Shown in pieces: positions 3,451 through 51,907 of a stretch of 64,000 nucleotides of DNA. The stretch is from Azolla caroliniana. Its lineage: Eukaryota > Plantae > Polypodiophyta. A program made the translations under genes and the position numbers. The notes below the pieces were generated by a model. It worked only from the letters and a program-made list of their open reading frames with translations. It searched no databases and had not been told where the DNA came from. Position 1 is the first letter of the stretch, and each line of letters opens with the position of its first letter. The DNA lies in the NCBI GenBank assembly GCA_043228905.1, contig JBHGNT010000022.1, forward strand, positions 7,316,001 through 7,380,000. Direction: 5' to 3'.

Positions 3451-3453
3451 TCT

Positions 3454-3471
3454 TGGTGAACCCGACGTGAA
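3454..3471 (+). promoter_or_regulatory. Primer binding site complementary to the tRNA-Trp 3' end
   Basis: TGGTGAACCCGACGTGAA is the reverse complement of TTCACGTCGGGTTCACCA (plant cytosolic tRNA-Trp end), 3 nt after the LTR. Confidence 0.9.
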
Positions 3472-3493
3472 GGAGGTGGCAGAAGAGTAGAAG

Positions 3494-5620: not shown

Positions 5621-8600
5621 AGAGGGCTGCCAAGGCGTGGGGCCGAGACAGTACGGACACTCGGGAAAGACCCCACAGCTGTACGATAGAACCGAAACCG
5701 AAGAAACCTTGTACGATAGGCAGAAAATTTTGCTTCTCCAACGATGGAGGGTGTATGATAGTCGGCATCGTTGGCCGAGAAAGGGCAAGGGCGGAGGAGC
5801 GACTTCGAGCGTGCGGAGTTCTCGGCCCGGACGAGGAAATCAGCGGAGCCGTGGAGGCGGTCTCCTTCGACAACACCTTGGGGATGCTGAGGAAGATAGC
5901 CGGAGAAGACCTTAATGAAGACCGGACGATACCGGTATGTTCCGAAGAGATGTACGAAGTCATCGCGAACTTCAATCAGGGGCTCGGGTCGGATCGGACG
6001 GCCCGGGTTAGCACGAAGTACAAGACTGTGGACCGGAAGGTAAGGCCAGTCGTGGCACCCTTACCGGAGGGCAGCGAATCCCGAATCAGAGGGGTTGCGT
6101 CGGACCCCAGTTTACGAGATCCGGTCTGCATAGGACACACCTTCACCGACGGGACGCTCCGGGAGCTCAAAATCGGTGGGAGCGGGTTCCTACTGCCGGC
6201 GGAAGAAGACCGGTTTCGGAGAATGCTCGGAAGGCACGGGAAAGCCTTCGCATTCTCACCGGAAGAGATCGGGTGCGTAGACCCGACAATCGTGGAGCCA
6301 ATGGTGATATTCACGGTACTGCATGTGCCGTGGAATCTCAAGCCGATTCCAGTACCGAGAGCTCACATCCCGAAGTTGATGGAGCTATTGAGGCAGAAAG
6401 TCGATATGGGCATTCTCGAACCGTCAAGTGCCCCATACTCGAACCGATGGTTTACCGTACCAAAGAAAAACGGAACATTGCGCTTCATTCAAGACCTGCA
6501 GCCGGTCAACAGAGTGACCATTCGGAACGCGGGAATCGGACCGACCATAAACGAGTTCGCGGAGGCCTTCGTCGGAAGGTCGATTTATTCAGTCGGTGAT
6601 CTGTACTCGGGGTACGACCAGTTCCAACTAGCCATGGAGAGCAGAGACATTACGACGATGCGAACTCCCCTCGGCCTAGTGCGAATGTGTACCCTGCCAC
6701 AAGGAGGGACCAACTCGGTGGCCCACATGGTGAATGCAATGAACAAGGTACTGAGGGATTGCATCCCGGACATCACCATGCCATTTCTAGACGACATCCC
6801 GATAAAGGGGTGCCCGGTGGAAGAGAAGGACGAGACACTCGGGCCGGACGGATGCCGGCGATTCGTGGCAACACACATCGATGACTGCGAGAGGGTGCTA
6901 CAAAGGCTAGAGGGTGCGAGGCTCACCTTCTCCGGGGAGAAATCGGCCTTCGGGCAATCAGAAATCCTGGTGGTCGGACACCTATGTGGACCATATGGCC
7001 GGAAGTCGTCTCCGGCAAAGGTAGAAGCCATCTCCGCGATGAAGACCGATTGTAGCTCGGTTACGGAAGTTCGGAGGTTCCTGGGGGCATGCGCATTCTA
7101 CCACATATGGATCCAGCATTACGCCCACGTTGCGGAACCGCTATACGGGTTGCTGAAGAAGGGGCGAAAATTTGAGTGGCGGGATGAGCACATGGAGTCG
7201 GTCTGGAAGCTGAAGGAAGCTCTTGCGGCAGCACCGGCGCTCCGGAAGGCTGTCTACGAGAAGGGTACCCCGGTATACATAACGGTGGATACGAGTCCGA
7301 CCGGGATCGGATGGGTCGTCAACCAAGAAGACGAGGACGACATTAGGTTCCCAATCCGATTCGGCGCGAAGGTCCTCAGTGAGCGACAACGAGGGTACGC
7401 CCAGGTTAAACGCGAACTCTGGGGTATCATTTCGGCAGTAAAGGCCGACAAAGACTACCTGATCGGGACAGAAGTGATTATCGAGACAGATTGCCTGCCA
7501 ATTCTCGGCATGGTTTCCGGATGCGCGACACCGGACCTGGCGATGCTCAGGTGGATAGCGTACATCAAGTCCCTGGACCCGGAAATACGACACATTTCCG
7601 GAAAAGACAACGCCATGGCCGACATGCTTTCGAGGGCGAGGTTTGATGACGAGGGCGGCATGGTTTCGGAGGACGAAGAAGTCGGCGTGGACTTCTTCGA
7701 GGCGGCGTACGTGACGACCGATGGGGCGAGCACTCCGGCACTTAACGACTTCGACGAGAGCAAGTACGACGGCGAGTGGCTACAGATCAGTGGGTTTTTG
7801 AGGACAATGACGCCGGATGCGTCATGGACGAGGGACGAGGCCAACCGGATCCGGAAGAAAGCATACTGATTCTTTCTCCGGGACGGATACTTATGGAAGC
7901 ACCCGAAGAAGAGGAACGGCGTCTCGCTCCGGGTGGTGGCGATGAAGGAAGAACAGGAGGAGCTGCTGACGGCCTACCACGACAGCCCTTGGGCTGGACA
8001 CCATGTAACGTGGGCCACGTTTGAGAAGATAAAGGGGAAGTACTGGTGGCCGGGACTGTACCGGGACGTGCATCGGTTCGTGACAACTTGCGAGAGCTGT
8101 CAGATGCACTCCATAGTCCGACATCAGGACGAGCTTCACCCTACATACCCTCCGACCATCCATTTCAAATGGATGGTAGATCTGGTAACGATGCCGATGG
8201 GAGTAGGACAGATGCGGTATCTGGTCCTGGCTCGGGAAGATCTGACGAACCAGGTGGAAGGCCGAGCCCTTCAAAACAAAACGACCGCGGCCGTATGTTG
8301 GTTCCTGATCGAGGACGTGATATGCCGGTACGGGTGCATCGGGAAGATCGTGGCTGATCACGGGGAGTTGGACACCGAAGAGGCCGAGGAGCTGTTCGAC
8401 CGGCTAGGAGTCAAGCTCTCGCTTACCACTGCGTACAATACGGAGGCGAATGGGAAGGTGGAGCGCGGACACGGACCGATCGTCAAGGCGTTAGTTCGGG
8501 CATGCGGAGGGCAAGTCGGGAACTGGCCGCGGCTGCTGCCTTACGCGTTGTGGGCTGACCGAACTACGCACAGTTCGGTAACCGGATTCATGCCGGCAGA

Positions 8601-9114
8601 GCTCATGTTTGGGCAGAAGCCGATCATGCCGATGGAACGTACGATCTCCTCATGGGCAACCGTGGACTGGAGAAACGAGATGAGCCGGGAGGAACTGTTG
8701 GCAGCGCGCATACGACAGCTCGAGCGAAGACCGGAGGACGTGGAGCAGGCTGCGGGAAAGCTTTGGGTGGCAAGGACGTGGAACAAAGCCCGGTTCGACC
8801 GAACGCACCGGCTCCGACCAAAGAAGATCGAGGAAGGCGACTGGGTGCTAGTCTACGACAGTAGCCTCGACAACCAGCACCGAGCAACACGGAAGTTCGC
8901 AAGAAGGTGGTTCGGGCCTTACGTGGTACAAAGCGCCAACGACAACGGGACATACCATCTGGCGGAACTCGACGGCACGAGAATGGCGATACCGATAGCT
9001 GGGAAGCAGATCAAAGCGTTCAAGAAGTGTCACGACGACGAGCCGGATCCGGTTAACCTGGACCGTGACGACGAACGATCCGAAACCAAGGAAGAACCGA
9101 CGGGCAGGGAATGA
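5611..9114 (+). pseudogene. Pol (RT, RNase H, integrase) in the -1 frame relative to gag, with a premature TGA at 7867-7869
   Basis: DLYSGYDQ, LPQG, FLDD, VDTS (RNase H), H..H..C..C zinc finger, MVDL/ADHG/VERGH integrase core, WFGPY. Confidence 0.93.
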
Positions 9115-9170
9115 AGGCTGGACCGGTTTTCTTCGTCCCAACTCAATTTGGCGCATGCCGGTGGATGCGC

Positions 9171-9187
9171 GGTTAGGTGGGGGCGGA
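9171..9187 (+). promoter_or_regulatory. Polypurine tract of the Trp-primed Gypsy
   Basis: GGTTAGGTGGGGGCGGA directly before the 3' LTR; nearly the same motif at 33593-33609 (minus). Confidence 0.8.
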
Positions 9188-9831
9188 TGTCGTGAAGAAA
9201 ACCATCCACAAGTGGAATCGGTGCACCGGAGCGTAGGAACCGTCTCTTCAAGCACGTATGTCTTATGTTGTACATAAGAGAGAATTAGGTACATAGAAGA
9301 TCCTAGGTAGGTAGATTCGGTAGGTAGGGAGTTAATGGGAAACGGCTCCTTTCTGGCGTATAAAAGGAGGGAGACGAGGAGGAGAGAGGGATCGCGGATA
9401 GAGAGGACGAAGTGCTGTCTGATTGTCGGCCGAAGGCTTCTCTCTCTTCCATACTCTGTAGCTCCTTTCTGTGCAGGTTTTCGGGAGGCTCGCGCTGCTC
9501 TGAGGAATGCCCGAGTGCTTCCGGCAGCACCTCGAACCTACTCCTTTCTTTCTGAGCGTTTACGAACAGGCATCGGCATCTGTTTGCCAGCCTGTTCGGT
9601 TGTAACCGACTTCGTGCTTCTTGTTGTTTGTCTCTGTTAATATATACATACATACCTTCGTGTCTCTCTGTGTCTGTTTCCCGCTCGCGTCTTTGTGTCG
9701 AAGGGCCGTGTCCCTGTGGATCTACGCTCGGACGTAGTGGGTCCCTTCCCTTCTCCTTTCTCTCTTGCTCTTCGGTTCGAGACCCCCGAGGTCCCGCCTC
9801 ATTCCACGCATCCGCGAGGAATACCTCGACA
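9188..9831 (+). repeat. 3' LTR of the Trp-primed Gypsy
   Basis: Direct repeat of 2807-3450. Confidence 0.95.
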
Positions 9832-9896
9832 CCGTCAATAACACAGTTGTTGGCGACCACGATTCTTGCACAAACGCAGCGAACAGTGGCGGGAAT

Positions 9897-12878
9897 GGAT
9901 GACTAGACCAACGAACGACCCGGTTACGGAGCAAGCAAGAAGACTTACCGAACGATTGCGGAAGCAAGAGGCTTTCCAACAAGCGGCAGAAGAGATCCGT
10001 GCTGATCGATCATTTTCCAAAGTAATCTGGCGAGTGGCGGCGGAGTCACTCTTCGTGCAGCTAACTCCCCACCCGGACGAAGGAAGCAGCTTGAGCAATC
10101 TCCGGGACGCGGAATCTATTCTACAAACATTAGCGACAGGGGAAGGCGATTCAGAACCGTTGTCGTGCTTTTTGGCGCCGGATCATTGTGTGAGTCGGGT
10201 GGGAACCACTGGGGTTTTAGACTAGGAGAAGGAAGAATTTGAGACAAGTTTATAGTTATGGATAGATTATTAGAAAGAGAGATCGAAATTTCGTGAATCC
10301 CACGAGTGTATTGTATTCGATTAATCAATATTTAGATAAGAATATGTATTTAGATTGAAAGAAAGAGATTAAAATGAACTTGTGAATCCCACAAGTATAG
10401 ATTATGTCGTGAATCCCCCGAATATAGTTTGTTAATTGGTGTTTTAGGAAATATATCCAATTTCCCAAATATTTCACCCCCCCCCCCCCCCCCCAGATTA
10501 CATTGTGCTCCCCATCCTTATGTAGTGATGAGGGAGTCTTAGCATTCCATGCTTTTTCTTCTCTAACTATAGACTCCATGCTTTTCCTATAGATAGACTA
10601 TATGCTTTTGCTAACTTGTGCGTTTTTTATCAACTATAGCGTTCATGCACACTATATGTGCATGCGTAGTTTTTTTTTTTTTTTAGCATGCATTTTCTTT
10701 TAACTAAAGTTTATCCTAGGTGAACTAACCTTTCTATGTGGAACATCTATTTTTTAACACTAATGAAATGCTAGTGCAATGGTAAGACATTACATTATTA
10801 ACATGGAGTTGCAAAGTTTGAATCTTGCTCTATGCATGTAATGCTTATTTTGATATTTTCTTCATTTTTTTCTTCATATTTATTCAATCGGTTATTTTAT
10901 ATTATTTTCATGTAGTGTACGAAATACACTACAACACCGTTCTCGGCCCTTGAATCGGATTCGGACGGCGAATGCAACGCCCATTCGAATTACCGTAGCA
11001 GACACCCCATACGGATTGGAGGACGAGCAGTCGAATACCTTGCCGACACCAGAACCAGAGTTAACGGAACTGGAAGCCCCAGACCGGCAAGTGGCGGATC
11101 AACTTCTGACATCGTCACGTGAAACACCGAAAGAAGAGGAGGGGAGACCTCTAACACCACCAGCCCGTGTTCCGACACCAGACGACGACATGTCGTTCCA
11201 ATATCCCAAGTACCAGGATGATCCAGACGCAGAAGCTCATGTCTATGCTTTTCTACAAACATGGGAAGCAAACCATGTGTCGCAATGCTTGACCGCCGCC
11301 GAAGCAGAACGCTCAAAGATTGCAAAGTTCGGCATGACCTTGGAAGGACCAACCGCGCGATTGGGCTTGATGCACCCTCCTGGCACCATCACGACGTTTG
11401 AGGACTTAAAAACCAGATTTTTACAATTCTTCACCAAGGACGTGGATCATCGGGAGATGGTCGGCCTATTCTACACTATACGGCAGGAACCTACGGAAAC
11501 CATTCAGCAATTCGTAATCTGGTTCCAGCGAATGCACAACTAGCTCAATTGGGCACCATCGGAAGCAGAAGCTAAAGCAATATTCCTAGCAGCACTTCGG
11601 GAACCCCTGCGTACGGTGTGCGCAGTGATTGATTTCCGCACTAGCACGATCGACCAAGTCATAGACCGGGTCAGGGAGATGGAGAAAACAAGCTCGTGGC
11701 TAACAATGGGGGCGCTCCAGCATACATTACCGACAGCAGATGACCTATGTTTTCGGCAAGCTATACAATGTACGACTTGTCTCAATGCCGGGCTCTCGGC
11801 AATAGAATGTACCATGCGAACACAGTGCATATTATGCCATTCTAGGGCGCACACCATGGACCGATGCGAATATAACTTGTTGAACCGGCAAGCGGCACCA
11901 GTAAGGCAAATCGAACCCCGGAGTAACCGGGAGGAGGAAGAAGAACGTTGGCGGCGAGATGAGCGTTACCGGCCGGTGCAAGATGTCCGGTACAGCGACA
12001 AAAAAGACACTCACAACCGAGACCGGCAGGATAGCTACTGGGATTACAACGGTGATCGATATGAGCGATACAACTGGGATCACTCCCCCGGTTACAACCA
12101 ACGGAGGGAGGATCAAGGCAATTATGAAAACCGGCCCCAACAGGGTTACCGGAACAAAAAACGCTTCAACAAAAAATAGAACGCTAGAAAGGAGGACCAC
12201 CAATGGCATTCGGACAAGGGCACACCAAGTACCCAACTGGATCAAGGCCAAGCACCTAACCGACCACCAATAGGACCTCAACCGGGTACCGGAGCAAATG
12301 CCGAATCCAGCAACACCCGGAAACCATACTGCTACTATTGCCGGCATGAAGAACATTACAGTAATCAATGTGCGGTTAAAAGTTACGAGAAACAACTAGC
12401 AGTAAATATGGTGGTAGCATAAGTCGCCAACATACAACAAGTCACCACTAGGTCCAAAGGCAAAACAACGGAGTGGGAAACACAGGAGGCAATCCGAAAG
12501 CAAGCCATAGAGTGGGTGAAGAAGGCAAATGAGCGGAATGTGGCTGAGCTTGAACAACAAAAGGACAAACCGAAAGAGGCCACCGACACGATTTAGCCGG
12601 AAAACCCAACATGGCAAGCGTTACAAGAATGTCAAATTATGTTTCCATTGGGTCGGTTATTATAGCTAGTGCCCCGATTTACGGAAGGGCTGACATCAGG
12701 AATGACCACATCAAACCCGTTGCCGGCTCCTGCGTTTTTCTCAAATCCACAAGAAGGGCCAGCAGTGGTTGACACGAACAGTTCGGCAATCACCGCCATC
12801 GTCAAAGGACAAGAACAACTAGGGACGATTGTGGACGAAGGATCGGGCGTGAACGTGATTAGTCTATGGACTTGTAAT
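9897..12878 (+). pseudogene. Gag and N-terminal protease of the host Athila-like element, interrupted at 10161-10936
   Basis: YPKYQDDPDAEAHVYAFLQTWEANH, CTTC..C..CILC zinc motifs and IVDEGSGVNVI; homologous to the 52346-57925 ORF; several stops. Confidence 0.88.
10161..10936 (-). mobile_element. Solo LTR (776 bp) probably related to the Trp-primed Gypsy lineage, 4-bp TSD CCGT
   Basis: TGTCG...CAACA termini, CCGT on both sides (10157-10160, 10937-10940); removing it restores host gag E-P-F-S-A. Shares GGGA(A)CCAC(T)GGGG..T.GACTAGG with the LTR at 32850. Orientation is inferred from that similarity. Confidence 0.75.
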
Positions 12879-13434
12879 GGGTAAAAGCATGCGAGTGGAA
12901 ACACTATTATAGCTAATTAGCTACTAAAATGGCCATAGCTAATTAGCTATTTGTTTAGCTAGTCTTTTTTGTCGGAAAATCAAATATTTGAAAAACTAAT
13001 TTATGAAAAAACTCAAATATTTGAACTTCTGTTTCAGACGTAGTGGAACTTGGGGAATAGCACCATCATCTAAGGTCGACTTCAATGTCATCAATTTCCT
13101 GTTTAGCCTAAGTCTGATTTTGAACGCAAATGGAGTACTCAGAGCACGAACGCAGACGTAGCTCCCGCAACAGCAGAAAATCGACATTGCAGATTGAGAG
13201 CTACAACACAAAACCCGCTCGATCATCGTCCAGGTATGTTTCAGTTACAGAAACCCCAAACATTTGTTTTTTCTTTTTGACTACTGTCTGAACTTTGGTG
13301 TTGATTCATATTTCCCCAAAATCGAATAGGGCGAATTCCTTGGAGTCCCATAAAGGATGTCTCGCAAATCGGGGAGTAGCAACAGGTGTGTTTATATTAC
13401 TTTTTTTGTGTTTAATCCTGTCTTTAGTGATGAT

Positions 13435-14020
13435 TGGGGTTTCTGATTGAAATTTCTGATTAGGGTTTTTGTTTATAAATTTCTGATTAGAGTTTCTGAT
13501 TAGGGTTTGTGATTGAAATTTCTGATTAGGGTTTCTGATTGAAATTTCTGATTAGGGTTTCTGATTGAAATTTCTGATTAGGGTTTTTGATTATAAGTTT
13601 CTGATTAGAATTTCTGAATAGGGTTTCTGGTTACAAATTTTGATTACAGATTAGAATTTCTTAATAGGGTTTTTGTTTATAAATTTCTATTTAGGATTTC
13701 TTATTAGGGTTTGTGATTGAAATTTCTTATTAGGGTTTGTGATTGAAATTTCTTATTAGGGTTTTTGATTATAAATTTCTTATTAGAATTTCTGAATAAG
13801 GTTTCTGGTTACAAACTTCTGATTACAGATTTTGATTAGGGTTTCTAATTTCAAACTTCTGATTACAGATTTTGATTAGGGTTTCTGATTTCAAATTTCT
13901 GAATACAAATTATGATTAGGGTTTCTGATTTGCTAAGTTAAAGATTTTGCACCATTTTTGTTGTTGTTGATTGGGGTTTCTGATTCTCACATATTCTGAT
14001 TTTGCACTATTTCTGATTTC
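13435..14020 (+). repeat. Degenerate tandem repeat rich in ATTAGGGTTTCTGATT (telo-box-like) filling an intron of the cargo gene
   Basis: Many imperfect copies of ttagggtttctgattgaaatttctga inside intron 13386-14036. Confidence 0.85.
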
Positions 14021-15367
14021 TGAAATGATATTTCAGATGGCTCGTTCCTCCGTATACGAGAGTGCTAAACTTTGCAAAATTTTGCGAGACAAAGGAGGAC
14101 TTCCACAACACCTATGGTCTGTCACTCGAGGGTGTTGACCTTGCTGTCCTAAGTGATAAATTGATCAGTGATGTAGACTGGATGACAGTATATATAGTGC
14201 CTAGAGTCAAAGGCAAGGTCAAGCTGAAGCATGTACGAGCCGACTTGTACGATGACTGCATGAGACTGCACCAGAAAGTTCATTAGGAGATCCCAGTCAA
14301 CAATGAGTTGTCAGTTTCATTTGCTAGAGCATTTGCATATGAGTACTGCAAAACAACGAAGGAATCCAGAGACCCTAAAATGTATAGGGTGGCTTGGGCA
14401 GTCTATGGTGAGGCATCGGTAAAAAGATGCCGAAAGATGGGGACCTTGGCACAAAAAATAGACAGATTTTGGAGCATGGCAGCTGTTGATGCAACTGCCG
14501 ACTCCCAGCAAGACCGAGGGCATACACCACACCAACACCCAAGGAAAGCCAATGTCGATGATACAGGTGAGACATTGGTTAGCTATATGCTAAAAAATGT
14601 CCATGAAGCCTGTGAGACATTGGCATTTTTTAAGACTGATTTAGAGAAAGCCACAATGGCTTCTGCAATGGAGAGCAAAGTTACTTCCACTGTTACAACA
14701 ATTAGAAAAAAGATTCAGGTAACTATTGTTTTGCTGGTATGTGATTGTGTTATAAATAACGGGTAAAATGTGCTAATCAAGCATTATCTGGAATAGGTTG
14801 CACAACAGGAGCTTGAATTAGAGGGGCCACTGGATCCCCAGCGTAAAATAGAACTACAAATAGAGATCCAGGTTCTTTCAATGAACCTGGACCTTCTAGG
14901 TGTAAATACTGTTGCAGATTACAATTTGGATAAGCTTCAAGTTAACGATTCCTGAGCAAAGTTGGTGTATCTTTCAACAACAAGAATAATTAATCGGTAA
15001 ATTTCTTTGTTGCGTTGAAGGAACAATACATTCCTCAAGAACAGGTAGTTAGCTGCCTTAAGAAGCAGCTACATTTTGTGGAGGGAATGGTAAGGACCAG
15101 ACAGGATTTGGACCTGAACATTTTTGCTCCCTTACCAAATGAAGTAGAACCAGAAAATGATTTATTGACAGTTCAAGCACATTGCATTGCTTGCGGGTTA
15201 GGTGTGGAGGACAAAACTGCGTCTTTGTTGGTTCACCTACAACCATGCAACCACACATACCATCTGCTTTGTTTTCAACATGCCTGTCAAATTGCTGCAT
15301 TCTGTTTGGGAGATTGTAGTACAGCTCTACCAAATGAGTGGAGAAAACTAACAAGTATACCATATTG

Positions 15368-16622
15368 TAGCTAATAAGCTTAGTCTTTTCTAATTAGCTA
15401 TCCTACTAGCTAATTAGCTACTGGCAGCTAATGAGCTACTAGCTAATTAGCTATCCTAGTAGCTAATTAGCTATGGTACTAGCTAATTAGCTAGTACCAT
15501 AGTTGTGTAAAAAAGCTAATTAGCTATCCTACTAGCTAATTAGCCACTGGCACCTAATTAGCTATCCTAGTAACTAATTAGCTACTGCCATAGTTGTGTA
15601 AAGTAGTTAATAAGCTATCCTACTAGCTAATTAGCTATCCTAGTAGCTAGTTAGCTATGGTACTAGCTAATTAGCTAGTACCATAGTTGTGTAAAAAAGC
15701 TAATTAGCTATCATACTAGCTAATTAGCTACTGGCAACTAATTAGCTATCCTACTAGCTAATTAGCTACTGGCAACTAATTAGCTATCCTACTAGCTAAT
15801 TAGCTATCCTAGTAGCTAATTAGCTACTACCATAGTTGTGTAAAGTAGCTAATAAGCTATCCTTGTAGCTAATTAGCTACTGGCAGCTAATTAGCTATCC
15901 TAGTAGCTAATAAGCTATCCTAGCTACTACATAGTTGAGAAAGTAGCTAATTAGCTTTCATTGTAGCTAATTAGCTATCCTACTAGCTAATTAGCTATCC
16001 TAGCTACTACCATAGTTAGTAAAGTAGCTAATTAGCTATCCTAGCTACTACCATAGTTAGTAAAGTAGCTAATTAGCTATCCTAGCTACTACCATAGTTG
16101 AGTAAAGTAGCTAATTAGCTATCCTAGCTACTACCATAGTTAGTAAAGTAGCTAATTAGCTATCCTAGCTACTACCATAGTTGAGTAAAGTAGCTAATTA
16201 GCTATCCTAGCTACTACCATAGTTGAGTAAAGTAGCTAATTAGCTATCCTAGCTACTACCATAGTTAGTAAAGTAGCTAATTAGCTATCCTAGCTACTAC
16301 CATAGTTGAATAAAGTAGCTAACTAGCTATCCTAGCTACTACCATAGTTGAGTAAAGTAGCTAATTAGCTACCATAGTAGTTAATTAGCTATCCTAGCTA
16401 CTACCATAGTTGAGTAAAGTAGCTAATTAGCTACCATAGTAGCTAATTAGCTATCCTAGCTACTACCATAGTTGAGTAAAGTAGCTAATTAGCTATCGTA
16501 CTAGCTAATTAGCTATCCTAATTAACTATCATACTAGCTAATTAGCTATCGTACTAGCTAATTAGCTATCCTAGCTTCTACCATAGTTTAGTAAAGTAGC
16601 TAATTAGCTATCCTAAATAGCT
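15368..16622. repeat. Minisatellite array built on the palindrome TAGCTAATTAGCTA (includes 41-42 bp higher-order units)
   Basis: Dozens of tagctaattagcta copies, e.g. the unit tagctaattagctatcctagctactaccatagttgagtaaag. Confidence 0.97.
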
Positions 16623-17343
16623 GCCATGTTATTGTAGAATCTTGTGGATTAAGGACGGCACATGATGTGTCTGGTGTTGATGACGCTGCAACAGATGAGG
16701 ATACTATTGCCAACGTGGCTGAAAGTAAGAATCCTGCTATCACATCTCCTTCAGATCAGCTCCACCCTATTCTTTTGGAACAGTGTACTGAATTAGGCAA
16801 CGATGTGAAATGCCATGAAATAGTGGAAACAACATGTAAAACTGAGGTTCACAACAACAGTGTTTATGAACACTTGATGCAACATTTCTTCGAGTCTCAA
16901 GACCTTGATTCCACCCCATCGAGCCCAACTACTGAAAATGTCCAAACAGATCCCTCTGTACTTGAAAAGCTAGGTCAAGAAACGGCTGATGTGCAATTAG
17001 CTGCTGAGGCGATGGGAAGGTTGTCGGAGGAGGACACACTTGCGCATTGGGTGAAAGAAGCAAGGCTAAATGGGGAACCAACCAGAAAAAGGCTGAAGAA
17101 GGGGCCACGATCGGGAACAAGACTAGTTACTCGGTCAAGGGGCCCAGACGTAGTGGAGCGAAATACTGTTTAGTTGGATATGATTGTTAGCTTAGGGATT
17201 TTGTTAGGGTTTTATGAAGTTTTACTATCCTATTGGACAAGTAAAACCTCAGATTGGTTGTTGCTTGATCCACATTATGTAATGGAACTCTATGATGTTT
17301 TTCCAAGATAATTTGAAGAGTGTTGTTCTATGATTGAAACTCT

Positions 17344-18399
17344 TTGATGTTCAGGATATTGTTTTGTGAGACTGTTAGTTACTTTGTGAGTGTGAATATG
17401 TTGGTGTTTTCTGATGTTGTAGAGTCTAAAGGGTTTGATTCTATTGCTCGTAAGGCCAATGGCAGTGTGGATACTGTTGATGTTGCGACATGTTTAAAGG
17501 GCCCCATCTTGAAAGTAGATGTAGCAACTGACACAAGTGATCTGGTCACACAAGTTGATCAAGCATGTAGCACGGATGACTTGGTGTTGCAGGTAGATGC
17601 AGCGTGTGATACCAGTGGACTGATATTGAGCAGATCAGTAGCTACATGCACCGAGGTAATCCAAGGATTGATAACTAAGTCAACAAAACAAGAGCACCAG
17701 AATGTGAAGCCAGGCCCAACACAGTCGACTAGGGGTTTGAAGAGGAAAAGGACGCCAATTGTGTCGGTCGAACCTGAGCTGATTGAGATTGATCGTATCC
17801 TACCAGAAAATGGTGTAACAGCGGCTCAGTTTCAGGTATGGAAACCTAAACCACTAGAAGTCGAAAGAAGAGCCTTGATCTTGGAGCTTGATAAAGTCTT
17901 GATGAGTGTGAGATATATGCAGCCAAGGAGGGACGCGAATTAGTTTCTAGAGTGGGCTGTGGAATACTTTGATTTGTTTATTTGGAGTGAAAAACCAAAA
18001 TCAGATGTGTGAAAGTGTTTGGCAAGATTCTTCCCAAAATGGCGAAGTCGTTTTAAAGGTCAATGGGCACGAGAAAATTGTGAGCAAATGGAAGCTGCAA
18101 GATTCAAGAGACTTTCTTATTTTTGGGCTACTTGGCCTGAATATAATGCCGACAATACATTGATTTTGGATACAGAACATTTCCGGCACTACTTCAATAT
18201 TCGGAGATGCTGTCTCACTCTACCCGAGGAAATGCCTGAACAGTACCTGGTGCAAACAGTGAGCTGCCAACTAGGTGCATGGTTGTGGACTCCATACCGA
18301 GCTCGATATGCGGATAATATATGTAGATTCGTTCCACTAACTAGCAAGAGCTTAGCTGTTTATAGGAGATTTGTAGACATTTCCAATGGTAATTTATAA
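17344..18399 (+). pseudogene. Cargo ORF with a C-terminal FCP1/NIF-like (HAD) phosphatase fold and a degenerate catalytic motif
   Basis: In-frame across TAG 17941-17943 and TGA 18010-18012: ALILELDKVL...PRRDAN*FLEWAVEYFDLFIWS...KRLSYFW...NTLILD. This matches the NIF pattern LxLDLDxTL/RP..FL/F.+.+WS/NT++lDD. Confidence 0.6.
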
Positions 18400-18746
18400 A
18401 TATGTAAAGAGATGACATTATTCAATGAAGAATTTAATTACTTGTTCCCACTGTACTTATATACTGTGTAATTTGAGGAATATGTTGCAGATTGTTGATT
18501 TCATGCTATTGATGACTATTTAGCTATTGACAGCTAATTAGCTGCATTTGTACAGCTAATTAGCTACTGATGACTATTTCGCTATAACTTATAACTTAAA
18601 ACTTAACAAAAAAGACATGATTTTATTGAGAAAGAAGCACAGAAAGCAGACTGTATACAAGAAATTGATTCCAAACGAATTTATTTAACTGTTTTCGCGA
18701 AATACATGTTTATTTTACAAGAGAACATGGTAAGTGCTACTTGTAG

Positions 18747-21700
18747 CTACAAATTCCATGGCATACTATTGTAAATACATTCATACACATTAGCACCAAC
18801 AGTGTATAAACCGGAGCAGCTATTGTATTCTGACATTGGGACGTTGATGCACCTGACCAAATGAGAGTACATATACGCCGTTGGTTTGTCTTCTAACAGC
18901 CTGTACACATATTCGTAGTCATCTAGTTTTGCATAAAAAATGCCTTCGATGTAGAATGTCCCGGCAGATACAAAATTTCCCCATGCATCTACAATATTCT
19001 GCCTTGCACACTGTTTACTAACCATGCACTTTAATATATAGAAATCAGCACCCTCTGAATTGCCTTCTTCAGCATTTACAGCGAAGTTATCCCCAACGTT
19101 CAGGACATCACTCAAAGTATCTCCAAGTCCCTCATATGTGAAGTCAACATTCTGCCCTGTTTCTCCATCAACTGCTTCCTTATCATTCAGAGTGTGATAC
19201 TCCCAATTCTGAATGTATGCTTTGTTTAGACAATATCTCCAATTTCCCTGCACACAATGGAAGCAAAAACAAGTCAATTCTCTAACCGCAATACAATGAC
19301 CATCCAACCTGGAATAACCGCGAACAGCATGCAGAGATCGCAATTCGGGAATTCCTTGGCACTCCCAGGTCTTCTCCCTATTTCCTTCATCTATCTTCAC
19401 TTCCCAAAATTCACGTTTGATATCTCGGACTTGCGAGGAATAAACACCTATGGCACTAGTTGACATATTTGTTCTTAAAAATTCAACTACATGTGATGCA
19501 CAATTCATGTGCACACCATCTGTCTTTAGTTGTTCATGGGTAAGTGCCCGCTTTATAACAGCCCTTGCACCATCATGTTCACCTTTACCATGGCCAGACC
19601 CAAAAAAATTCCATCTCATCTCCAAACCTGTTATAGCAGGATACCTCCCCACAAAATAAAATGGACGTCAAGCCTTGAATTGTGACGCAGCTCCGTCAGA
19701 CCAGACCCAATGTTGAGTAAGCTCCAAACGTTGAGCTAATAACCACTGCCAATGTAACTTAAAACAGTGTTGGACGAACAAGGTATCATGCTTCTTATCA
19801 TCGGAAATAAAGAAATGAATTACTTTTTTAACATCACCTGAAACTCGAAAATATGTTATGTGCACAAAAATGGTTACCTGAACTGAACACCAATGCATAG
19901 ATTGAATTTCATTCTGCTGCTTGAAAGTATAATTCTCTGCGAAATCTACTACTGAGACTACTATATCATTTGGGAAATCAGATATGCAAGTCTTAAACTA
20001 ATCGGCCTGCCATGAATAAATGAAGTTGTGTTTAATGAACTTTCCTAGAGATACTACAAACAAAGACACCAAATCCCTTGGTTTAAGCATCTTCCGAACT
20101 AGATCCTTTCTTTTACACACCTTTCCTTCGAAATTGGTGTTCACTGACTCAAATAACTTCACAGAGATCAATATTTCACTACTCAATTCATTTGGACACC
20201 ACCTAAATCTAGTAGAGCAACAATCTTGACATAAACCCATGACACATTTATGAATATAGAAGATAGCGTCAGTTTCTCTCGGACACAATATTGAATCTAA
20301 TAAATAACTCATGGAAGAGATAACGTGCTCAGATGATTTACACTCCTCTTGCGGGCTTGATCGACAGATTGGGCACCCACATGTGCAAACTGTATTAGTT
20401 AGGGATGCGCTATGGTGACGTAGTAGATTAACAGAGTCCTTCAGAAAACCCATCTGTACATGGTAAATGCAACAACATGTGTATAGATCCTTTAAGCGTC
20501 TCACAAAGTGTGGCTTAAGAGACTCGAATGTTTGTAGTTGAACTTTGATAGTTGGATGCATTCGTTTGAACCTAATAAATAAATCGACCTGCGTAATAAA
20601 GGGGAATTAGTTATTCTCGTAACTAGCTAACTATCCTAGTAGCTAATTAGCTATTCTAGTAGCTAATTAGTTGTCCTAGTAGCTAATTAGCTGTCCTAGT
20701 AGCTAATTAGCTATCATGGTAGCTAATTAGCTGTCGTAGTAGCTAATTAGCTATCATGGTAGCTAATTAGCTATTCTAGTAGCTAATTAGCTGTTGTAGT
20801 AGCTAATTAGCTATCATGGTGGCTAATTAGCTTTCCTAGTAACTAATTAGCTATCATGGTAGCTAATTAGCTGGTCTAGTAGCTAATTAGCTATCATGGT
20901 AGCTAATTAGCGGGTCTAGTAGCTAATTAGCTATCATGGTGGGTAATTAACTGTCCTAGTAACTAATTAGCTATCATGGTAGCTAATTAGCTGGTCTAGT
21001 AGCTAGTTAGCTATCATGGTAGCAAATTAGTTGGTCTAGTAGCTAATTAGCTATCACAGTTGTGAATTAGCTATCCTAGTAAGCTAATTAGCTATCATGG
21101 TAGCTAATTAGCTTTCCTAGTAGCTAATTAGCTGGTAATAACGAAATAGCAAACTAGCTACCATGATAGCTAACTAGCTACCATGATAGCTAACTAGCTA
21201 CCACGATAGCTAACTAGCTACCACGATAGCTAACTAGCTACCAATACAGCTAATTATCTGGTAGTACCTAAATTAGCTATTGAGAATAGCTAATTAGCTA
21301 TCATGGTAGTAGCTATTGAGAGTAGCCAATTACCTATGTAGAAGCTATCATAGTAGCTAATTAGCTATCATGGTAGCTAATTAGCTTTCCTAGTAGCTAA
21401 TTAGCTGGTAATAACGAAATAGCTAACTAGCTACCATGATAGCTAACTAGCTACCAGTACAGCTAATTATCTGGTAGTACCTAAATTAGCTATTGAGAAT
21501 AGCTAATTAGCTATCATGGTAGTAGCTATTGAGAGTAGCCAAATACCTATGTAGTAGATATCCTAGTAGCTAACTGAGATAAATGTAACTGATAAGCTAA
21601 TTAGCTTTTCTGCTAACTGAGCTAATTAACTTTCCGAGTAGAGTCAAAACAAATGTTGAGGTAAATGTAAATACCTGAGGTACATCAAGAAGATGAATGG

Positions 21701-22424
21701 GATGCTCCTCGTACTGATTTCTTCCAACACGTTTCCTGCATAAATCCTTTTTATTGGGTGAAACCCTACTCTCATTAGTCCAAAACATTGTGATTACATC
21801 CTTGATTTCAAATGTTATGGGTGTCATTGGCTTACATCTTGTTGTTAGCTTTAGTAGACTAGTTCCTTCACCCGAGGAAATTATACGGTTCATTGTATTG
21901 TACACTGTTTTTCTACTAACACCAATTACCTTAGATAGCTCACTGATGTTTATATCGTCAACATCACTATTAAGTAACATCATTAGACTAGACCTTTTTA
22001 AGACAAGATCATCTTCTGACCTGCTCATGGATACGAAACTATTACGAAGATTATTTACTAAAATAGATGATATGTTTGCATTAAGACCATCACAATCAAC
22101 TAAGTCCTTTATCGATGGATCATTACATATTCCATAAAGTACTACCTTCTTTTCTTCATTGCTGATGTGCTTGGTTTGAACATTGAAATAGTCTACAACC
22201 TTTCTCTCTATGATGGTAGTCGCATTACTTACATTCTCAGCTAAACTATCCTTACCTTTACTGAGTGTGGCTTTCGTATCCTTCAACAATTGACGATGTT
22301 TCCTTTTTTTTTCTGCCCAATAGTTTCGTATGGCTTGTTGTGTCCTGATAACATCATCCCTATCCTTATGATCATTGAGGGGTAATTCTAAACACCCTTC
22401 TTCCCCTTCCATTTGGCTGGACAT
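18747..22424 (-). pseudogene. Sola2-like transposase (~863 aa), two exons (22424-21675, 20588-18747), two C>T nonsense mutations
   Basis: Motifs CCCIYH, VDFAENY...EIQSMHW, WSDGAASQFK, FFGSGHGKGEHDG, CFCFHC. Phase-0 intron CAG/GTATTT...TTACGCAG/GTC. Stops at 19998-20000 (TAG) and 19668-19670 (TGA) lie in the same frame. Confidence 0.8.
20605..21630. repeat. Second TAGCTAATTAGCTA palindrome array (mainly 20-bp units) filling the transposase intron
   Basis: Units such as agctaattagctatcatggt and agctaattagctgtcctagt, inside intron 20589-21674. Confidence 0.97.
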
Positions 22425-22756
22425 GTTAAAACCCTAAATTTCCAGAAAAAAAAACAAGTATTAAAGATGGCTAGGGGCAACAACAATACACAAAAATATT
22501 CCACAATACACAAGATTAGACACAACAATACACAAGATAATCAATAGACAAAAAAGTTATTGCAATCCAAGACCGAACAGTAGAGGATTTCACTCTGTTG
22601 GATCGAACAGTTGAGGAGGCGATCCAAGACCGACCAATGGCAACAACTGAGTGTAGAATGTTGCCGTTGGATGAGTGAACTCCGTCAAATCGAAATGTTG
22701 AAGCAATCCGGGACTGGATAGTAGCGTCAACTGAGTATAGAATGATGGCAATGGAG

Positions 22757-23330
22757 GAGAGAACCCCGTCAGATTGAATAGTTACCGATGATGCTTGGAA
22801 CGCACATAGAAGGCACTTGAGAGTAGAGTGGCACAGAGAAGAGAACCCCGTCAGATTGAACAGTTACCAATGATGCTTGAAACGCACAGTAGCGGCCCCT
22901 GAGTGAGAGTGGAAAAGAGAAGAGAACCCCGTCAGATTGAATAGCTCTTTGATGATGCTTGGAACGCACAGTAGCGGCCCCTTAGTGTAGAGGGGCAAAG
23001 AGAAGAGAACCCCGTCAGATTGAACAGCTCTTTGATGATGCTTGGAACGCACAGCAGCGGCCCCTGAGTGTAGAGTGGCACAGAGAAGAGAACCCCGTCA
23101 GATTGAACAGCTCTTTGATGATGCTTGGAACGCACAGTAGTGGCCCTTGAGTGTAGAGTGGCACAGAGAAGAGAACCCTGTCAGATTGAACAGCTCTTTG
23201 ATGATGCTTGGAATGCACAGTAGTGGCCCCTAAGTGTAGAGTGTCACAGAGAAGAGAACCCCGTCAGATTGAGCAGCTCTTTGATGATGCTTGGAACGCA
23301 CAGTAGCGGCCCCTCAGTGTAGAGTGGCGG
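22757..23330. repeat. Tandem array of ~7 copies of an 81-83 bp unit upstream of the transposase
   Basis: GAACCCCGTCAGATTGAA (one copy has a mismatch) recurs at ~22761, 22842, 22924, 23007, 23090, 23173 and 23256. Confidence 0.95.
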
Positions 23331-23684
23331 TAGGTGGACTCGATAGGGTTTAGCAACAGTGGTAGCAACTAACCCACAGTACTCAACTAGAGATGGCCTA
23401 CGTGATGTGGCAAAGGATCATGCATAATGGACCTAGGAATTCGATATATAATTCATGGTACACATTTATGGTGCACACATCAATTTATGTTGCACATTTA
23501 TGGCACTCATTTACATATGTAATTAAAACACTCTAGTATTTTCAATGGTAGTTTTTTGCATACTGAATTGCTTAATGATGGCTTTTTACTAAAATGACTA
23601 TTTATCAATGGTAGCTTTTTGCATAGCTAATTAGCTATGTCAAGGACATAGCTAATTGTTTCCACTCACATGCTTTCACCCAAT

Positions 23685-25538
23685 ACCCTGGGAATCCAGG
23701 AATGGGAGCCTTGCCTGTTTTGGCTCCGGATGGCGAATACAAGTTCGGTAAGACCTACCGGTTTGATACGGGATTTAGACGTAACTATCGGAGGACACGC
23801 ATTCCACATTTCGGCGGTGGTTCTCTAGCTCAATGCGCAAGGGGCTTACCCGTTGTTGCTGGGTCGGCCATGGCTAAAAACAACGCATATCAAACAAAAC
23901 TGGCGGAAAAACATGATTACCTTCCGGCGTGGAAAGGCTAAAGTAAGGGTACCTACCCACCCTTGATCGAGTACCGGCAAGGAGCTGACACCACTATATG
24001 CGGAAGGTGTAAACATGCTCGAGGGGCTTGCTAATGAAGAGGTCGACCAATACTTAGAAGAAAACCCAAAAATTGTACCCCTATTTGAAATCGATGTGGC
24101 AGAAGCAGTGTCACCATATATAATGCAATCGGATGATGCCAGCGAGGAACCGGATAAGGAAGCTATCAAAGAATTACGGCAAGCACAAGAAGCTCTGGAG
24201 AGGGAGATGGCGGTATCCCAATGCGTGGAAGCATCCTAGTTAGAGGAAGTGAACTTAGGAACCGGAAAGGACGCAAGACCGGTTCATATTGCTAAGAAAA
24301 TGTCACCAGACAACAAGATGGGATGTATTCACCTAGTCCTATGAAGACATGTGGGGGCTGGATCCTCAGTTGTACCAACACCATATACATCTCAATAAGG
24401 ATGCCAAACCGGTAGCACAACAGCGTTACCGGATGAACCCTAACTATGCGGCAAAGGTCAAAGAGGAAATTGACAAGTTGTTACAGGTCGGTTTTATCCG
24501 ACCAGTGAAAAAACCTACATGGTTAAGTCCCATAGTCGTCGTGCCAAAAAAGAAAGGTAAGATCCGGGTGTGTGTCGACTACCAGAAACTCAATGCGGCA
24601 ACAGTGACCGATGCCTTTCCACTTCCATTTACGGATAGAGTGCTAGACGCGGTAGCCAATCATGAAGTGTATAACTTCCTAGATGGTTTCAACGGCTACA
24701 ATCAAATAAGGATGCACCCCAACGACCAAGACAAGACGTCGTTCGTCACCGAATGGGGAGTCTTCATTGCAGTGATAATGATGTTCGGGCTCAAGACCGC
24801 GCCGGCGACCTTCCAACAAATATTCATGGAAGTATTTGGCGAGTTCATCCCAGCATTCATGCAGGTATTCTTGGATGACTTCGTCGTGTATAGCCAAGAA
24901 GGAGAACATCTCCAACACCTCCGGCTATGTCTTCAAAAATGCAGGAGTTATCGGTTAAGCCTGAATCCAGCAAAGTGTGTGTTCGAAGTAACAAGCGGTG
25001 CATTGTTGGGCCATATCGTCAGCAAGGACGGGATCGCAATAGACCCCGATAAGGTCAAAGAAATCTTAGAAGCACTGACACCATCCATGGCCAAATCTTT
25101 GAGTCGGTTTCTAGGGCAAATCTGGTTGCATAGCCGAATGCTCCTGTATTTGGCCGATCTTGCAACACCGTTGCATGCCGCGGTTCACCGAACACCGTTT
25201 CAATGGACAAATACGGAGGATAAGACTTACCGGGCACTGAAAGTACTGTTGTCACAAGCGCCGATGGTGCAACCACCGGACTGGTCAAAAGAGTTCCACG
25301 TGTTCGTCGATGCGTCCAACATAGTAATCGGCAGCGCACTAATGTAACTGACTAAACCGAAATGGTACCGACCGGTTTATTATGCTAGTTGGAAGCTATC
25401 CCAGGAGGAACAAAATTATTCAACAACGGAAAGAGAAGCCTTAGGGATGATTTACAGTGTTACCAAGTTCAGACACTATTTATTGGGAAGGAAATTTTTC
25501 ATTTCATGTCGACCACTCAGCGCTATTATACTTGGTCT
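23685..25538 (+). pseudogene. Protease C-terminus, RT and RNase H of the host Athila-like element
   Basis: LLGRPWL, RVCVDY, FLDGFNGYNQI, VFLDD, VFVDAS; stops and deletions present. Confidence 0.92.
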
Positions 25539-26070
25539 TGTTGAGCGGAAAGCTCAACCGGAGCCGGATCGGCTGAATAAGCCGGAGCCGGTAAGAGAGA
25601 CGGATCGGACGAAACAGATCGGTATGACGGTGAGCAACCGAACCGACAAGCAGTGGAGGCCAGGTGCAACCCGTAACCGGCAGCCCAATCGGAAGCCTAG
25701 TATAGGATAGACTACTAGGAAGCTATAGTCTCGTAGTAAGTGTCAGATGCTCGTGTGAGCATTGAAATACATGGTACTTCTGTCAGTCCCAAGAGGACTT
25801 GTATAAATAGTGCTATTTAGCACAGTGTGTATTTGAGTCTGGAAATAATTTTGAAATTGTGTTCTGCTCTCTCTGTCTCTCTCTCTCTGTCTCTCTCTCT
25901 CTGTCTCTCTCTCTCTGTCTCTGTGTGTTGTTCTCTGTTTTACTGTTTTACGCTTCCGCAAACACTCACGTTCACATGGTATCAGAGCGCGAGGGTTGAG
26001 AACCTCTGCTGCAGACATTTACTCTTGAGAAGAAAACCCTAACAGGTCGAAAACAGACACAGTAGAAGAC

Positions 26071-29000
26071 ATGGATAGAGGCATGGCTACGTCGCTCCCG
26101 GTGGAGAAGCTCGACAGGAGCAACTACGCATCCTGGTCTTACAAGATGCACCAGTGCCTGCTTGGACACGAGTACTGGAGTTATGTCGAAGGAGCGAATG
26201 ATGCAGCGCCCGACTCGGCACACAAGGACTTCCCGGTATGGGAACAGGCGGCAAGCAGGGTGATGTACTGCTTCGCGTCCAGTGTCGGCGATCAGCTGCT
26301 CAACCACATCCGTGACGCCAAGACACCGAAGGATGCTTGGGGGAACCTGAAAAAGGTTTTCGCCGCAAGCACCACTGCCCGGAAGCTGCACCTCAGACAG
26401 GAGTTGAGCAATGTTCGACAGAAGAACATGTCTGTGGCAGACTACACTGGCCGGATAAAGGAGATCTGCGATTCGCTCGCCTCTATCAATGTTACCATAG
26501 AGGAAGACGAGATGGTGCAGGTATGTCTCGGAGGCTTGGCGTCCAAGTTCGGAGCGTTCCGGACTACGGTGTGTACAACGGAGAATACACCCTCACTCTT
26601 CAACTTACAGTCCATGCTGCTTGTAGAGGAGAACCACGCCGGTGCATCTACCAGTGCATCCCCGGACAGCCGAATGTTGTACACGGGAACGGATCGGCTC
26701 CGTGGGCGTGGTGGAAGAGGTGGGTCAGCACGCAATGGAGGCGGCCGGCAAGAGCAGGAACGGAGGCACTATGAACGTGCCGACAGCAGTTCCGGAACTT
26801 CCACAAGCAGGGGGAGTCAAGGCGGTGTTGGAGGCCGGCAAGACAAATCCGCTACGGAATGCTGGTATTGTGGCAAAAAAGGCCACAAGGAAAGCGAGTG
26901 CTGGAGAAAGCGTGCCGATTCGGACAAATCCGGATCCGGCAAGACCGGTATGGATGGCCAGCAAAACTCGCACTACGCAAACGGATCAGGAGGATCCGGA
27001 ACCAGAGAGGCCGGTAAGGGGCCAGCCTTGGTGATGAATCACAAGGCAAACTCAATGAAGAAGACCACTTCCAAAACGGAGGAAGTGTGGTATGTTGATT
27101 CCGGCGCGTCGAACCACATGACGAGCCACAAAGAGTGGTTCTCCTTTCTGGACAAACCGGATCGACCAGGAGTAGTCGAAACCAGAGACGACACTCCTCA
27201 CCCAATCGTGCACGTCGGAGAAGTCCCTCTAAGCCACGTCAGACAGAAAGGGAAGCTGATGAACGTATTACACGTTCCGACAATCACGAAGAACCTGGTG
27301 TCCGTCGGTCATATTGTCGACCAGGGGATGCAGGTGCGGTTTACGCACCTCGGGTGCTTCATTAAGGATGAGGGTGTTCCGACAATCACGAAGAACCTGG
27401 TGTCCGTCGGTCATATTGTCGACCAGGGGATGCAGGTGCGGTTTACGCACCTCGGGTGCTTCATTAAGGATGAGGGCGAAGTCATTGCGCAAGGGCGCAG
27501 AGACGGGAGGATGTTTATCCTCAACAGCAACGACTTTGGCACCGCTCTGTTCGCGAAACGACAGAAGGTCGAGTCGGACATCGACCTGTGGCACAAGCGG
27601 ATAGGCCACGTCAACTACCGGAGGCTTCAAGACCTGCAAACGAAACAAGTCGTTTTTGGTTTGCCGAAGTTCAGCGGCCAGAGAGCCGAAATTTGTGAAG
27701 CCTGCCAACTTGGGAAGCAACACCGGCTTCCATTCCCCACCGAACGGAACCGGAGCCGTAACAAGCTCGATCTCATCCACTCAGATGTGTGGGGACCGGC
27801 ACAAAGTGTAAGCCTTGGCGGGAGCCGATACTTCGTCTCCTTCATCGACGACTATACTCGACATACTTGGATCTACCTCATTGAGCGGAAGAGTGAAGTC
27901 TTCGACTGTTTCCAGAGCCTCCAGAAGATGGTGGAACGGGAATCGGAGAGGAAGATCAAATGCCTTCGGTCGGATGGCGGAAAGGAATATTTTTCCGGCC
28001 AATTCACTAGTTATCTGCAGCAGAAGGGAATTCGGCAAGAGTTTAGCTGCAGATACACACCGGAGCAAAACGGTGTGGCCGAAAGGAAGAACCGGACACT
28101 CGTCGAAGTGGTAAGGGCAATGCTGGAGGAGAAGAGCATGCCCCGGTTCTACTGGGCGGAGGCGGTCCGGACGGCCGTCTACATACCACACCGCATTGGT
28201 GACAAGGTGTCAGCTCATGAGCTGTATTTCGGGCACAAGCCGAACTTAAGACACCTTCGGATATTCGGCAGCATAGCGTATGTGCATGTGCCGGATCAGA
28301 AGCGGAGAAAGCTGGATGCAAAATCGGAAAAATGCATCCTAGTCGGCTATGCTCAAGAGCAAAAGGGGTATAAGTGCTATAACCCCCGGACGAAGGAAGC
28401 CCGAGTTAGCCGGGATGTCGAGTTCGATGAATCGGCATCTTGGTACTCCGTATCAACTCCGACTTCCAATCCCGACCCAATGTCGGAAGATCAGGCCAGT
28501 GAACCTGAATCAGCCCTGGCAGAGGATGATGAAGCCGGGACTCAAGATGAGAGTCTGGAATCGTTACGGTTGAGTGGACCGAACGAGCGACTGAGTCGGT
28601 TGGACCAGTCGAATGAAGAGACGGCAAGTGGTGGAGACTCTGCCGTGCTCTCCCCGCGCAAGGAACCGAGGAAACGGTTCACGCGCAAAGAGAAGGGGAA
28701 GAGGAAGATGCCGGAATTCGAAACCGGCAATGATGAGTCGGATCGGTGTGTATCCGACTCCGGAAAGGAGAAAGGCGGATCTTCGGCAACGAAGACCAAA
28801 CTGGCCAAGAAGGGCCTCAAATCAGGTGACGGTGCGTTGCGCCGATCAACCCGCCAGAAGGATCCCGTCAAACGGTGCGGGTACAATGAATACATGGCGC
28901 ATCATTATGCGTACATGACTAAGGTGACAGAAGTGCGTGAGCCGGAGAGCTACGCAGAAGCGGCAAAGGACGCAAATTGGCGTGCTATTATGGACGAAGA

Positions 29001-30725: not shown

Positions 30726-31605
30726 CCGGCTGAAGAAGCCGAGGGAAGCATGGAGAAGTCCAAGACTCGGAAGTGGTCCGATGTGGTGAGAGGCGTGAAG
30801 CCGAAAGTCGAATCGGAGTGTACCAATTCGGACAAGAGCTGGAACGAGTCGGATACAGCTGACTCGGATCAACAGATGGATCCGGATGAGTCGGATCGAC
30901 TGAAGGCCAAGGGGACACGGACACAGCGGCAGTCGATGCCATCGTGGGAGAACCGACGGATAGGCAAGCGCCGGAGTCACAGCAATGTGAGTGCTGAGAT
31001 GGGCCTATTGAGCAGACATGCCGACCGAGAGGGTCGAGGCGCGCAGAACCAAAGGGGTCGCAGCAAACGGGACCGGACCGGACGAGGAGCGCGAGCAAGG
31101 CGGAGTGACGCCAGGAGAAGTCGGTTGGAAGAACGGACTGCCACAGAGGTTGACACTACAACCCCACCTCAGGTTGAGCTTGAGGGGGAGTGTTGAGCGG
31201 CAAGCTCAACTGGAGCCGAATCGGCTGAATAAGCCGGAGCCGGTAAGCGAGACGGATCGGACGAAACGGATCGGTATGACGGTGAGCAACCGAACCGGCA
31301 AGCAGTGGAGGCCGGGTGCAACCCGTAACCGGCAGCCCAATCAGAAGCCTAGTATAGGATAGACTACTAGGTAGCTATAGTCTCGTAGTAAGTGTCAGAT
31401 GCTTGTGTGAGCATTGAAGTACATGGTACTTCTGTCAGTCCCAAGAGGACTTGTATAAATAGTGCTACTTAGCAAAGTGTGTATTTGAGTCTGGAAATAA
31501 TTTTGAAATTGTGTTCTGCTCTCTTTGTCTCTCTCTCTCTATCTCTATTTGTTGTTCTCTGTTTTACTGTTTTACGCTTCTGCAAACACTCACGTTCACA
31601 GGTCT

Positions 31606-32678: not shown

Positions 32679-32945
32679 TTAAAAACTCAACTTGTTAATA
32701 AAAAATATAAAAAATAAAAAGTCATCATGCATAGGCGAGGAGCGAACGAAAACTTTGGGCACTTTGAAAAGTTGTGCTGGGTGGCCAATTAAAGCCTCTT
32801 TAAAAATGCACCATGTTGTCGCGTTGTTACGCGCGTGCGTGGAGAAAGGCGGGACCACGGGGGTCTTGGACTAGGGAGTGATGGAGCGTAGGAAGTCGTG
32901 CTTCACTGTTTCCGGGGCATCCCAGAAGCACACCGAAAGCAACCG

Positions 32946-32985
<40 letters not shown>

Positions 32986-51898: not shown

Positions 51899-51907
51899 TG
51901 GACCACG

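Follow-up and report, generated by a model that had tools for sequence, protein, structure and literature searches.

A two-gene Sola2-type transposon family of Azolla caroliniana with a conserved accessory gene and family-specific palindromes: a possible system for evading host silencing

The window analysed here is a 64,000-nucleotide stretch of the genome of the fern Azolla caroliniana (assembly GCA_043228905.1, contig JBHGNT010000022.1, positions 7,316,001 to 7,380,000 of the forward strand), in which a Sola2-type DNA transposon of 10.8 kb occupies positions 12879-23681. Besides the transposase, this element carries a convergent second gene, referred to below as the accessory gene, whose predicted product combines a helical domain (HEL), a coiled coil, a RING-like finger and a NIF/FCP1-like domain. 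The accessory gene is fixed across the copies and subfamilies of the transposon, and its folded parts are under purifying selection, with a ratio of nonsynonymous to synonymous substitution rates (dN/dS) of 0.15-0.35. We tentatively propose a two-gene family in which HEL might bind the family's own palindrome, and the predicted RING finger and the likely dead NIF domain might act on host proteins and keep the element active, a reading that we consider possible, though short of probable.

The accessory gene was retained in nearly all family copies. Between the subfamily consensus sequences A and B, dN/dS equalled 0.17 for HEL, 0.15 for exon 4, 0.35 for the RING-like finger, 0.20 for NIF and 0.16 for the transposase (p<0.01 in all cases), and neither the exon 7 linker (0.51) nor the acidic exon (0.61) reached significance. 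Within the young family the ratio was mostly uninformative, as singletons gave 0.5-0.8 in most exons. The 20 divergent loci that were fetched represent older subfamilies of about 80-88% identity; palindromes were kept in 16 of them and the exact start of the left terminal inverted repeat (TIR) lay within the stretch in 8. No stand-alone host copy of the accessory gene was found in 60 fetched loci, 40 picked by the transposase and 20 by accessory exon 3, which make up a part of all matches. The cargo is thus neither confined to a single copy nor evolving neutrally, two outcomes that an earlier note on this DNA had named as refuting its proposal of a self-regulating or anti-silencing element, and a conserved accessory gene is supported. 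Recent capture of a host gene was rejected, since the accessory gene is family-wide and under purifying selection.

The accessory gene lies on the plus strand. Exon 1 (13130-13233) begins with the predicted ATG and encodes a basic, Ser/Arg-rich segment; it is followed by exon 2 (13330-13385), by exon 3 (14037-14718), which holds HEL, an apparently new helical domain of ~135 aa, and the start of the coiled coil, by exon 4 (14797-14940), a predicted coiled coil, and by exon 5 (15021-15354) with the RING-H2-like finger. Exons 1-5 are in frame, and contigs of sequencing runs X1 and X2 lack introns 1-3, with joins at GT..AG boundaries. Both runs belong to a single study of a relative with ~95% identity, and their status as RNA is a guess by the tool; the accessory contigs of these runs exit the element within exon 4, and parts without contig cover carry no weight. 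The five-exon gene described in the earlier note therefore stands as far as it goes, but the gene probably continues past exon 5, with an acidic exon at 16638-17173 that had not been listed. This exon 6 is likely disordered and ends in a basic T-R-S tail. It is separated from exon 5 by predicted intron 5 (15355-16637) and followed by predicted exon 7 (17423-18399), a linker and the NIF/FCP1-like domain with the degenerate catalytic motif ELDKV.

Taken together, the five-exon gene and the FCP1-like open reading frame (ORF), which had been noted as separate items, are probably one gene encoding HEL, the coiled coil, the RING-like finger, the acidic exon and a degenerate NIF domain. We infer a single transcription unit with alternative 3' exons (6 and 7), because the predicted splice donor at the end of the RING exon is conserved in three subfamilies, with the sequence diverging directly after it, because the acceptors of exons 6 and 7 are both conserved among subfamilies and both in phase 1, matching this donor, and because the Adiantum gene models P0171 and P0226 hold HEL, RING and NIF in a single chain and in the same order. 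At least two of the four domains were present in 21 proteins, and all 10 accessory homologues that were looked up belong to Adiantum. The segment between exons 6 and 7 (17180-17420) differs by 8% between subfamilies versus 12-13% in the other introns and a synonymous divergence (dS) of 0.2-0.4. Signals for splicing or for the 3' end may lie there.

In an intact copy NIF matches PF03031 with E 2.7e-7 and 30.8 bits (cut-off 21.8), which confirms the FCP1-like ORF, and in the distant metagenome locus L118 the score reaches 55.3 bits. FCP1/SCP phosphatases of the NIF type use the catalytic motif DxDx(T/V). This motif is replaced by ELDKV in the present element and 5 close homologues, and by DLNGV or DLNNV in 5 Adiantum-type proteins and in loci L118 and L119, so the domain is likely catalytically dead. 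The RING-like finger presents eight candidate C3-H2-C3 ligands, the last pair being 3-4 residues apart rather than 2; its zf-RING_2 match (E 0.034) is below the cut-off, and the homologue P0221 gives E 8e-4. For HEL, no clear fold match was obtained in Foldseek searches of PDB and viral structures, in the ESM Atlas or in PDB sequence searches, a result that demonstrates neither novelty nor difference, and a 227-aa model searched via VIA returned coiled coils only. The basic tail of the acidic exon recurs, with T-R-S/G/Q, in five distant loci (L116, L118, L124, L126 and L167); it is speculation that this tail serves as a nuclear-localisation or nucleosome-binding patch.

The candidate binding site is a 12-bp palindrome, AGCTAATTAGCT, present in 59 copies in the element and nowhere else in the window. 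None of the copies lies in an exon. Two are subterminal on the left (12904-12950) and one lies just inside the right TIR, 32 form array B (15390-16610) in intron 5, 22 form array C (20605-21522) in the transposase intron (20589-21674), and two are intergenic, between the convergent genes (18505-18585). Genome-wide, 27,017 copies were counted versus 15 for the control. The number per element ranges from 53 to 112 in 32 full copies, and between subfamilies the palindrome core is kept as the spacers turn over. Two further repeat types, both palindrome-free, confirm that the non-coding space holds three: a 13-bp tandem array in intron 2 (13431-13931) with 11 telobox sites (AAACCCTAR), and an 83-bp tandem repeat upstream of the transposase (22754-23328), of seven units here and 4-9 in the 32 full copies. 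Teloboxes are Polycomb-recruiting elements in Arabidopsis (bioRxiv 10.1101/2024.09.27.615353).

Related elements possess other motifs. Among 26 metagenome loci screened, five (L115, L116, L118, L120 and L121) had 9-mers of their own that recur to either side of the transposase exon but not within it, and the long moss-type loci contained only low-count AT-rich words. With all 59 palindromes outside exons, the idea of family-specific non-coding motif arrays gains support. In an intron of L118 (L118:171-496) the motif ATGCTAATTAGCAT differs from the palindrome of the Azolla family by a symmetric change on both arms, and the two motifs would make a natural specificity pair.

The transposase, encoded on the minus strand, comprises 863 codons in two exons (22424-21675 and 20588-18747), as previously proposed; one X1 contig joins the two exons across the predicted intron, with a shorter side of 21 bases. 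Exon 1 encodes an N-terminal helix-turn-helix (HTH) that matches HTH_11 with E 6.5e-5, below the Pfam cut-off, and exon 2 carries DFAENY, SDG and HGKG-x-x-DG. Sola2 elements have short TIRs with 5'-GRG termini, with which the GGG termini and the 25-bp TIRs found here agree. The whole motif series, i.e. DFxENY, QxxHW, SDD/HD, SDG-x4-Q-Y/F-K and WxFFxxxHGKxxxDG, matches by eye the published Sola2 alignment (PMC3627910, Additional file 10), and the catalytic-region columns are invariant across 42 transposase homologues. Sola2 is further described as producing a 4-bp target-site duplication (TSD) (PMC3627910), and such a TSD was present in 31 of 31 complete copies. On these three features the element belongs to Sola2, in line with the earlier note. 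Superfamilies with 3-bp TSDs (CACTA, Harbinger) are ruled out by the same 31 copies.

In total, 107 transposase homologues were found, the named ones coming from Ceratodon, Adiantum, Taxus, Cryptomeria, Klebsormidium and two molluscs. A tree was built from 73 rows, a selection of proteins and loci limited to database homologues, from which the short Adiantum fragment was left out because of its length. In this tree the named plant and algal rows form a clade with support of 98/97, separate from the rows that contain the molluscs. Over the core, the Adiantum fragment is 68% identical to the Azolla transposase versus 45-51% for the other named plants; like the Adiantum accessory homologues, this points to a fern rather than a moss as the likely host. 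Queries with distant transposases recovered only this family among the scored candidates. The statement that Sola2 occurs mostly outside land plants needs tempering, as Sola elements, with the subgroup not named, have been reported from Physcomitrella (PMC10741241), Azolla and Salvinia (PMC6786969) and Ceratopteris (PMC6890710). Active Ginger and Sola clusters jointly account for 9 of 3203 in 1007 plant genomes (PMC12973397).

Pieces of the accessory gene also occur beside distant plant Sola2 transposases, as indicated by a metagenome scan that gave 80 loci. NIF is convergent to the transposase, 0.6 kb away, in L118 and L119, and RING is convergent to it in L124 and L126. Fifteen distinct loci extend 4 kb or more downstream; 5 of them have an opposite-strand HEL-like exon, one further locus was weak and nine had none. 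The link of these exons to HEL is indirect: a profile built without these five loci placed L124 at the top of 3272 ORFs (E 0.0085), the hhalign values were E 1.5e-5 (L124) and E 7.8e-6 (an L136-like protein), and the HEL-like exons of L154 and L175 connect through L124; the strong E-values obtained with a profile that includes the five loci are circular. The HEL-bearing distant loci sit in the Ceratodon branch of the transposase tree, and therefore the pairing of the two genes is probably older than the moss-fern split, or was moved horizontally. NIF was seen in the fern-type branch only.

How could such a protein serve the element? In the reading that we favour, HEL would dock on the family's own palindrome, and the predicted RING finger, putatively by ubiquitin ligation, and the likely dead NIF domain would act on host silencing, chromatin or transcription proteins; the outcome would be an element that stays active and escapes host silencing, in parallel to Arabidopsis VANC. 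Two observations weigh against this. The transposase is an equally available candidate for binding the palindromes, and in young copies CG/CHG deamination has left a strong signal that does not ease close to the arrays, although this transition footprint is an indirect measure of hypomethylation, in which transient action would leave little trace.

The lack of a protection footprint lends weight to an alternative in which the palindromes are bound by the transposase, and the accessory protein would serve as a transposition cofactor of MURB or TnpA type that aids assembly, integration or the choice of targets and plays no part in anti-silencing. This alternative is also consistent with the palindromes that flank both TIRs, with the HTH of the transposase, with the binding of MURB by MURA (PMC12973397), and with a report that transposases alone can activate cognate copies (bioRxiv 10.64898/2026.08.24.746577). 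However, 54 of the 59 palindromes are intronic and far from the ends, and the pairing of ends should need fewer; RING and NIF would moreover point toward host proteins as targets. We rate this cofactor role as rather unlikely, yet as the most serious competitor of the anti-silencing proposal.

A self-limiting repressor, which would bind the arrays or ubiquitylate the transposase and to which convergent transcription would add antisense control, might explain the convergent gene layout, the purifying selection on the RING-like finger and the degenerate NIF motif, which could trap phosphorylated substrates. It fits poorly with the recent expansion of the family (mean pairwise difference of 0.6%, 569 ends) and with the retention of the gene in nearly all copies, and we find it distinctly unlikely. 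Very unlikely, finally, is a scenario in which the arrays are satellites that arose by slippage and are bound by no partner, and the second gene is an old captured cargo of unrelated benefit to element or host: array length does vary (53-112 palindromes), introns readily gain tandem repeats and, in some Adiantum gene models, HEL homologues are joined to fragments of retrotransposons or host genes, but the palindrome core is kept during spacer turnover, isolated palindromes occur at four further sites, the accessory dN/dS matches that of the transposase and the linkage recurs in distant elements.

Compared with the reference Sola2 elements (PMC3627910), the Azolla element has similarly short TIRs, a likewise AT-rich 4-bp TSD and a transposase of similar size (863 codons versus 888 aa of DFa-2). 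It differs in its plant host and its dense palindrome arrays. Amoebozoan Sola2 elements also bear a second gene, which is Fanzor1 (PMC3627910) instead of a multi-exon HEL-coiled coil-RING-NIF gene.

The Arabidopsis VANDAL elements likewise pair an accessory gene, VANC, with family-specific short motifs that are tandemly amplified in intronic, intergenic and terminal non-coding DNA (PMC5735166). VANC21 contains a coiled coil (PMC13547354), so that both accessory proteins have a globular domain followed by a coiled coil. The element is nevertheless not a VANDAL: VANDALs have a Mutator transposase, whereas here the Sola2 motifs and the 4-bp TSD are found and no Pfam MULE match. RING, NIF and the palindromic nature of the motif further set it apart from VANC, whose function it may share by analogy; no DUF1985 match was detected in the accessory protein by sequence. 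Whether this would be an independent version of the VANC logic, as had been suggested, is uncertain, because HEL has a very weak structural match to VANC21.

Similar traits recur in plant host genes. PP7L has a PPP-type phosphatase fold, and NIF is of the HAD type. The PMD-C proteins MAIN, MAIL1 and MAIL2 and their partner PP7L involve a transposon-linked domain structurally akin to the DUF1985 of VANC, a phosphatase-like partner, and promoters in which teloboxes stand together with a specific motif, which for MAIL2 is a palindrome (bioRxiv 10.1101/2024.09.27.615353); teloboxes, a palindrome and a phosphatase-like domain are also found here, in a transposon gene rather than host genes. No PMD match was seen in the accessory protein, and PF10536 and PF09331 gave nothing above the cut-off in the element's own genome. 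It is doubtful, but conceivable, that HEL belongs to the VANC/PMD fold as a remote member and that a motif-guided anti-silencing protein has been part of plant Sola2 elements from a time before the moss-fern split, armed with RING and, in the fern-type branch, a dead RNA-polymerase carboxy-terminal-domain phosphatase domain, with each family rewriting its target motif. If so, sequence-specific anti-silencing would long predate the dicot VANC system and be much more widespread.

The genes of maize MuDR are arranged convergently, as in the Azolla element. MuDR (mudrA/mudrB) is a two-gene TIR element of another superfamily, whose accessory protein is needed for insertion (PMC12973397). Sola1-1_Ec32 of Ectocarpus is a large Sola that carries an accessory gene on the opposite strand, for which binding and modification of the element's own DNA have been proposed (PMC12477816); it belongs to Sola1 and encodes ParB and a DNA methyltransferase, with no domain in common with the accessory gene described here.

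The element is bounded by 25-bp TIRs at 12879-12903 (plus strand) and 23657-23681 (minus strand), identical at 23 of 25 positions, which bears out the earlier description; allowing up to 5 mismatches, no further TIR copy was present in the window. A TSD exists, as claimed, but its length in the family is 4 bp, and the flanks of this copy (12876-12878 and 23682-23684) match over three bases only (AAT). Perfect 4-bp TSDs, 74% A+T, flank all 31 fetched copies with both ends (40 were fetched, nine without an end inside the stretch taken). Of these, 30 are independent, as one pair (G000:C14:13057201 and C14:13193395), with shared flanks and length in inverted orientation, represents a single duplicated locus. 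Exact TIR ends number 569 genome-wide, and the transposase query gave 129 scored matches among 1197 candidates, the 128 non-self ones at 96-98%. The family is therefore young, given a mean pairwise difference of 0.6% in the transposase block. The window copy itself is dead, with five premature stops (14284, 17941, 18010, 20000 and 19670); all frames were open in 12 of the 28 sequences scored across all 8 tested exons. An X1 contig links both element ends (window 12916 to 23619), which suggests that the relative has a non-autonomous derivative of very small size.

Most of the window consists of nested copia and gypsy elements, and the insertion site is the protease-like region of a Ty3/gypsy-type retrotransposon (12500-12878 and 23682-25344). 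The element is AT-richer than the surrounding GC-rich retrotransposons, whose flanking DNA (2879-12878 and 23682-33681) has an observed/expected CpG ratio of 1.0-1.1 versus 0.4-0.6 in the Sola2 exons. Two long open frames of 938 and 1861 codons on the minus strand (48902-57931) likely belong to a retroelement.

Sola elements of ferns and mosses are already known; for the accessory gene no description was found in the literature searched, nor for a plant family of the same architecture (Repbase and most subscription papers lay outside this scope, and the supplements of PMC12973397 may bear on novelty). Very few systems of transposon silencing evasion are known in detail, and this family, young and present in many copies, some of them intact, offers a test case: it has a defined candidate site of 12 bp, natural motif variants in relatives and HEL, a domain predicted to fold confidently for which no clear relative is known. 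Should the protein read the motif and lift silencing, VANC-type logic would also hold in a second superfamily and in seed-free plants, and might yield new, programmable-looking epigenome tools. Otherwise, the finding still defines an accessory-gene family of plant Sola2 elements, whose members appear in fern genome annotations as hypothetical genes of the host.

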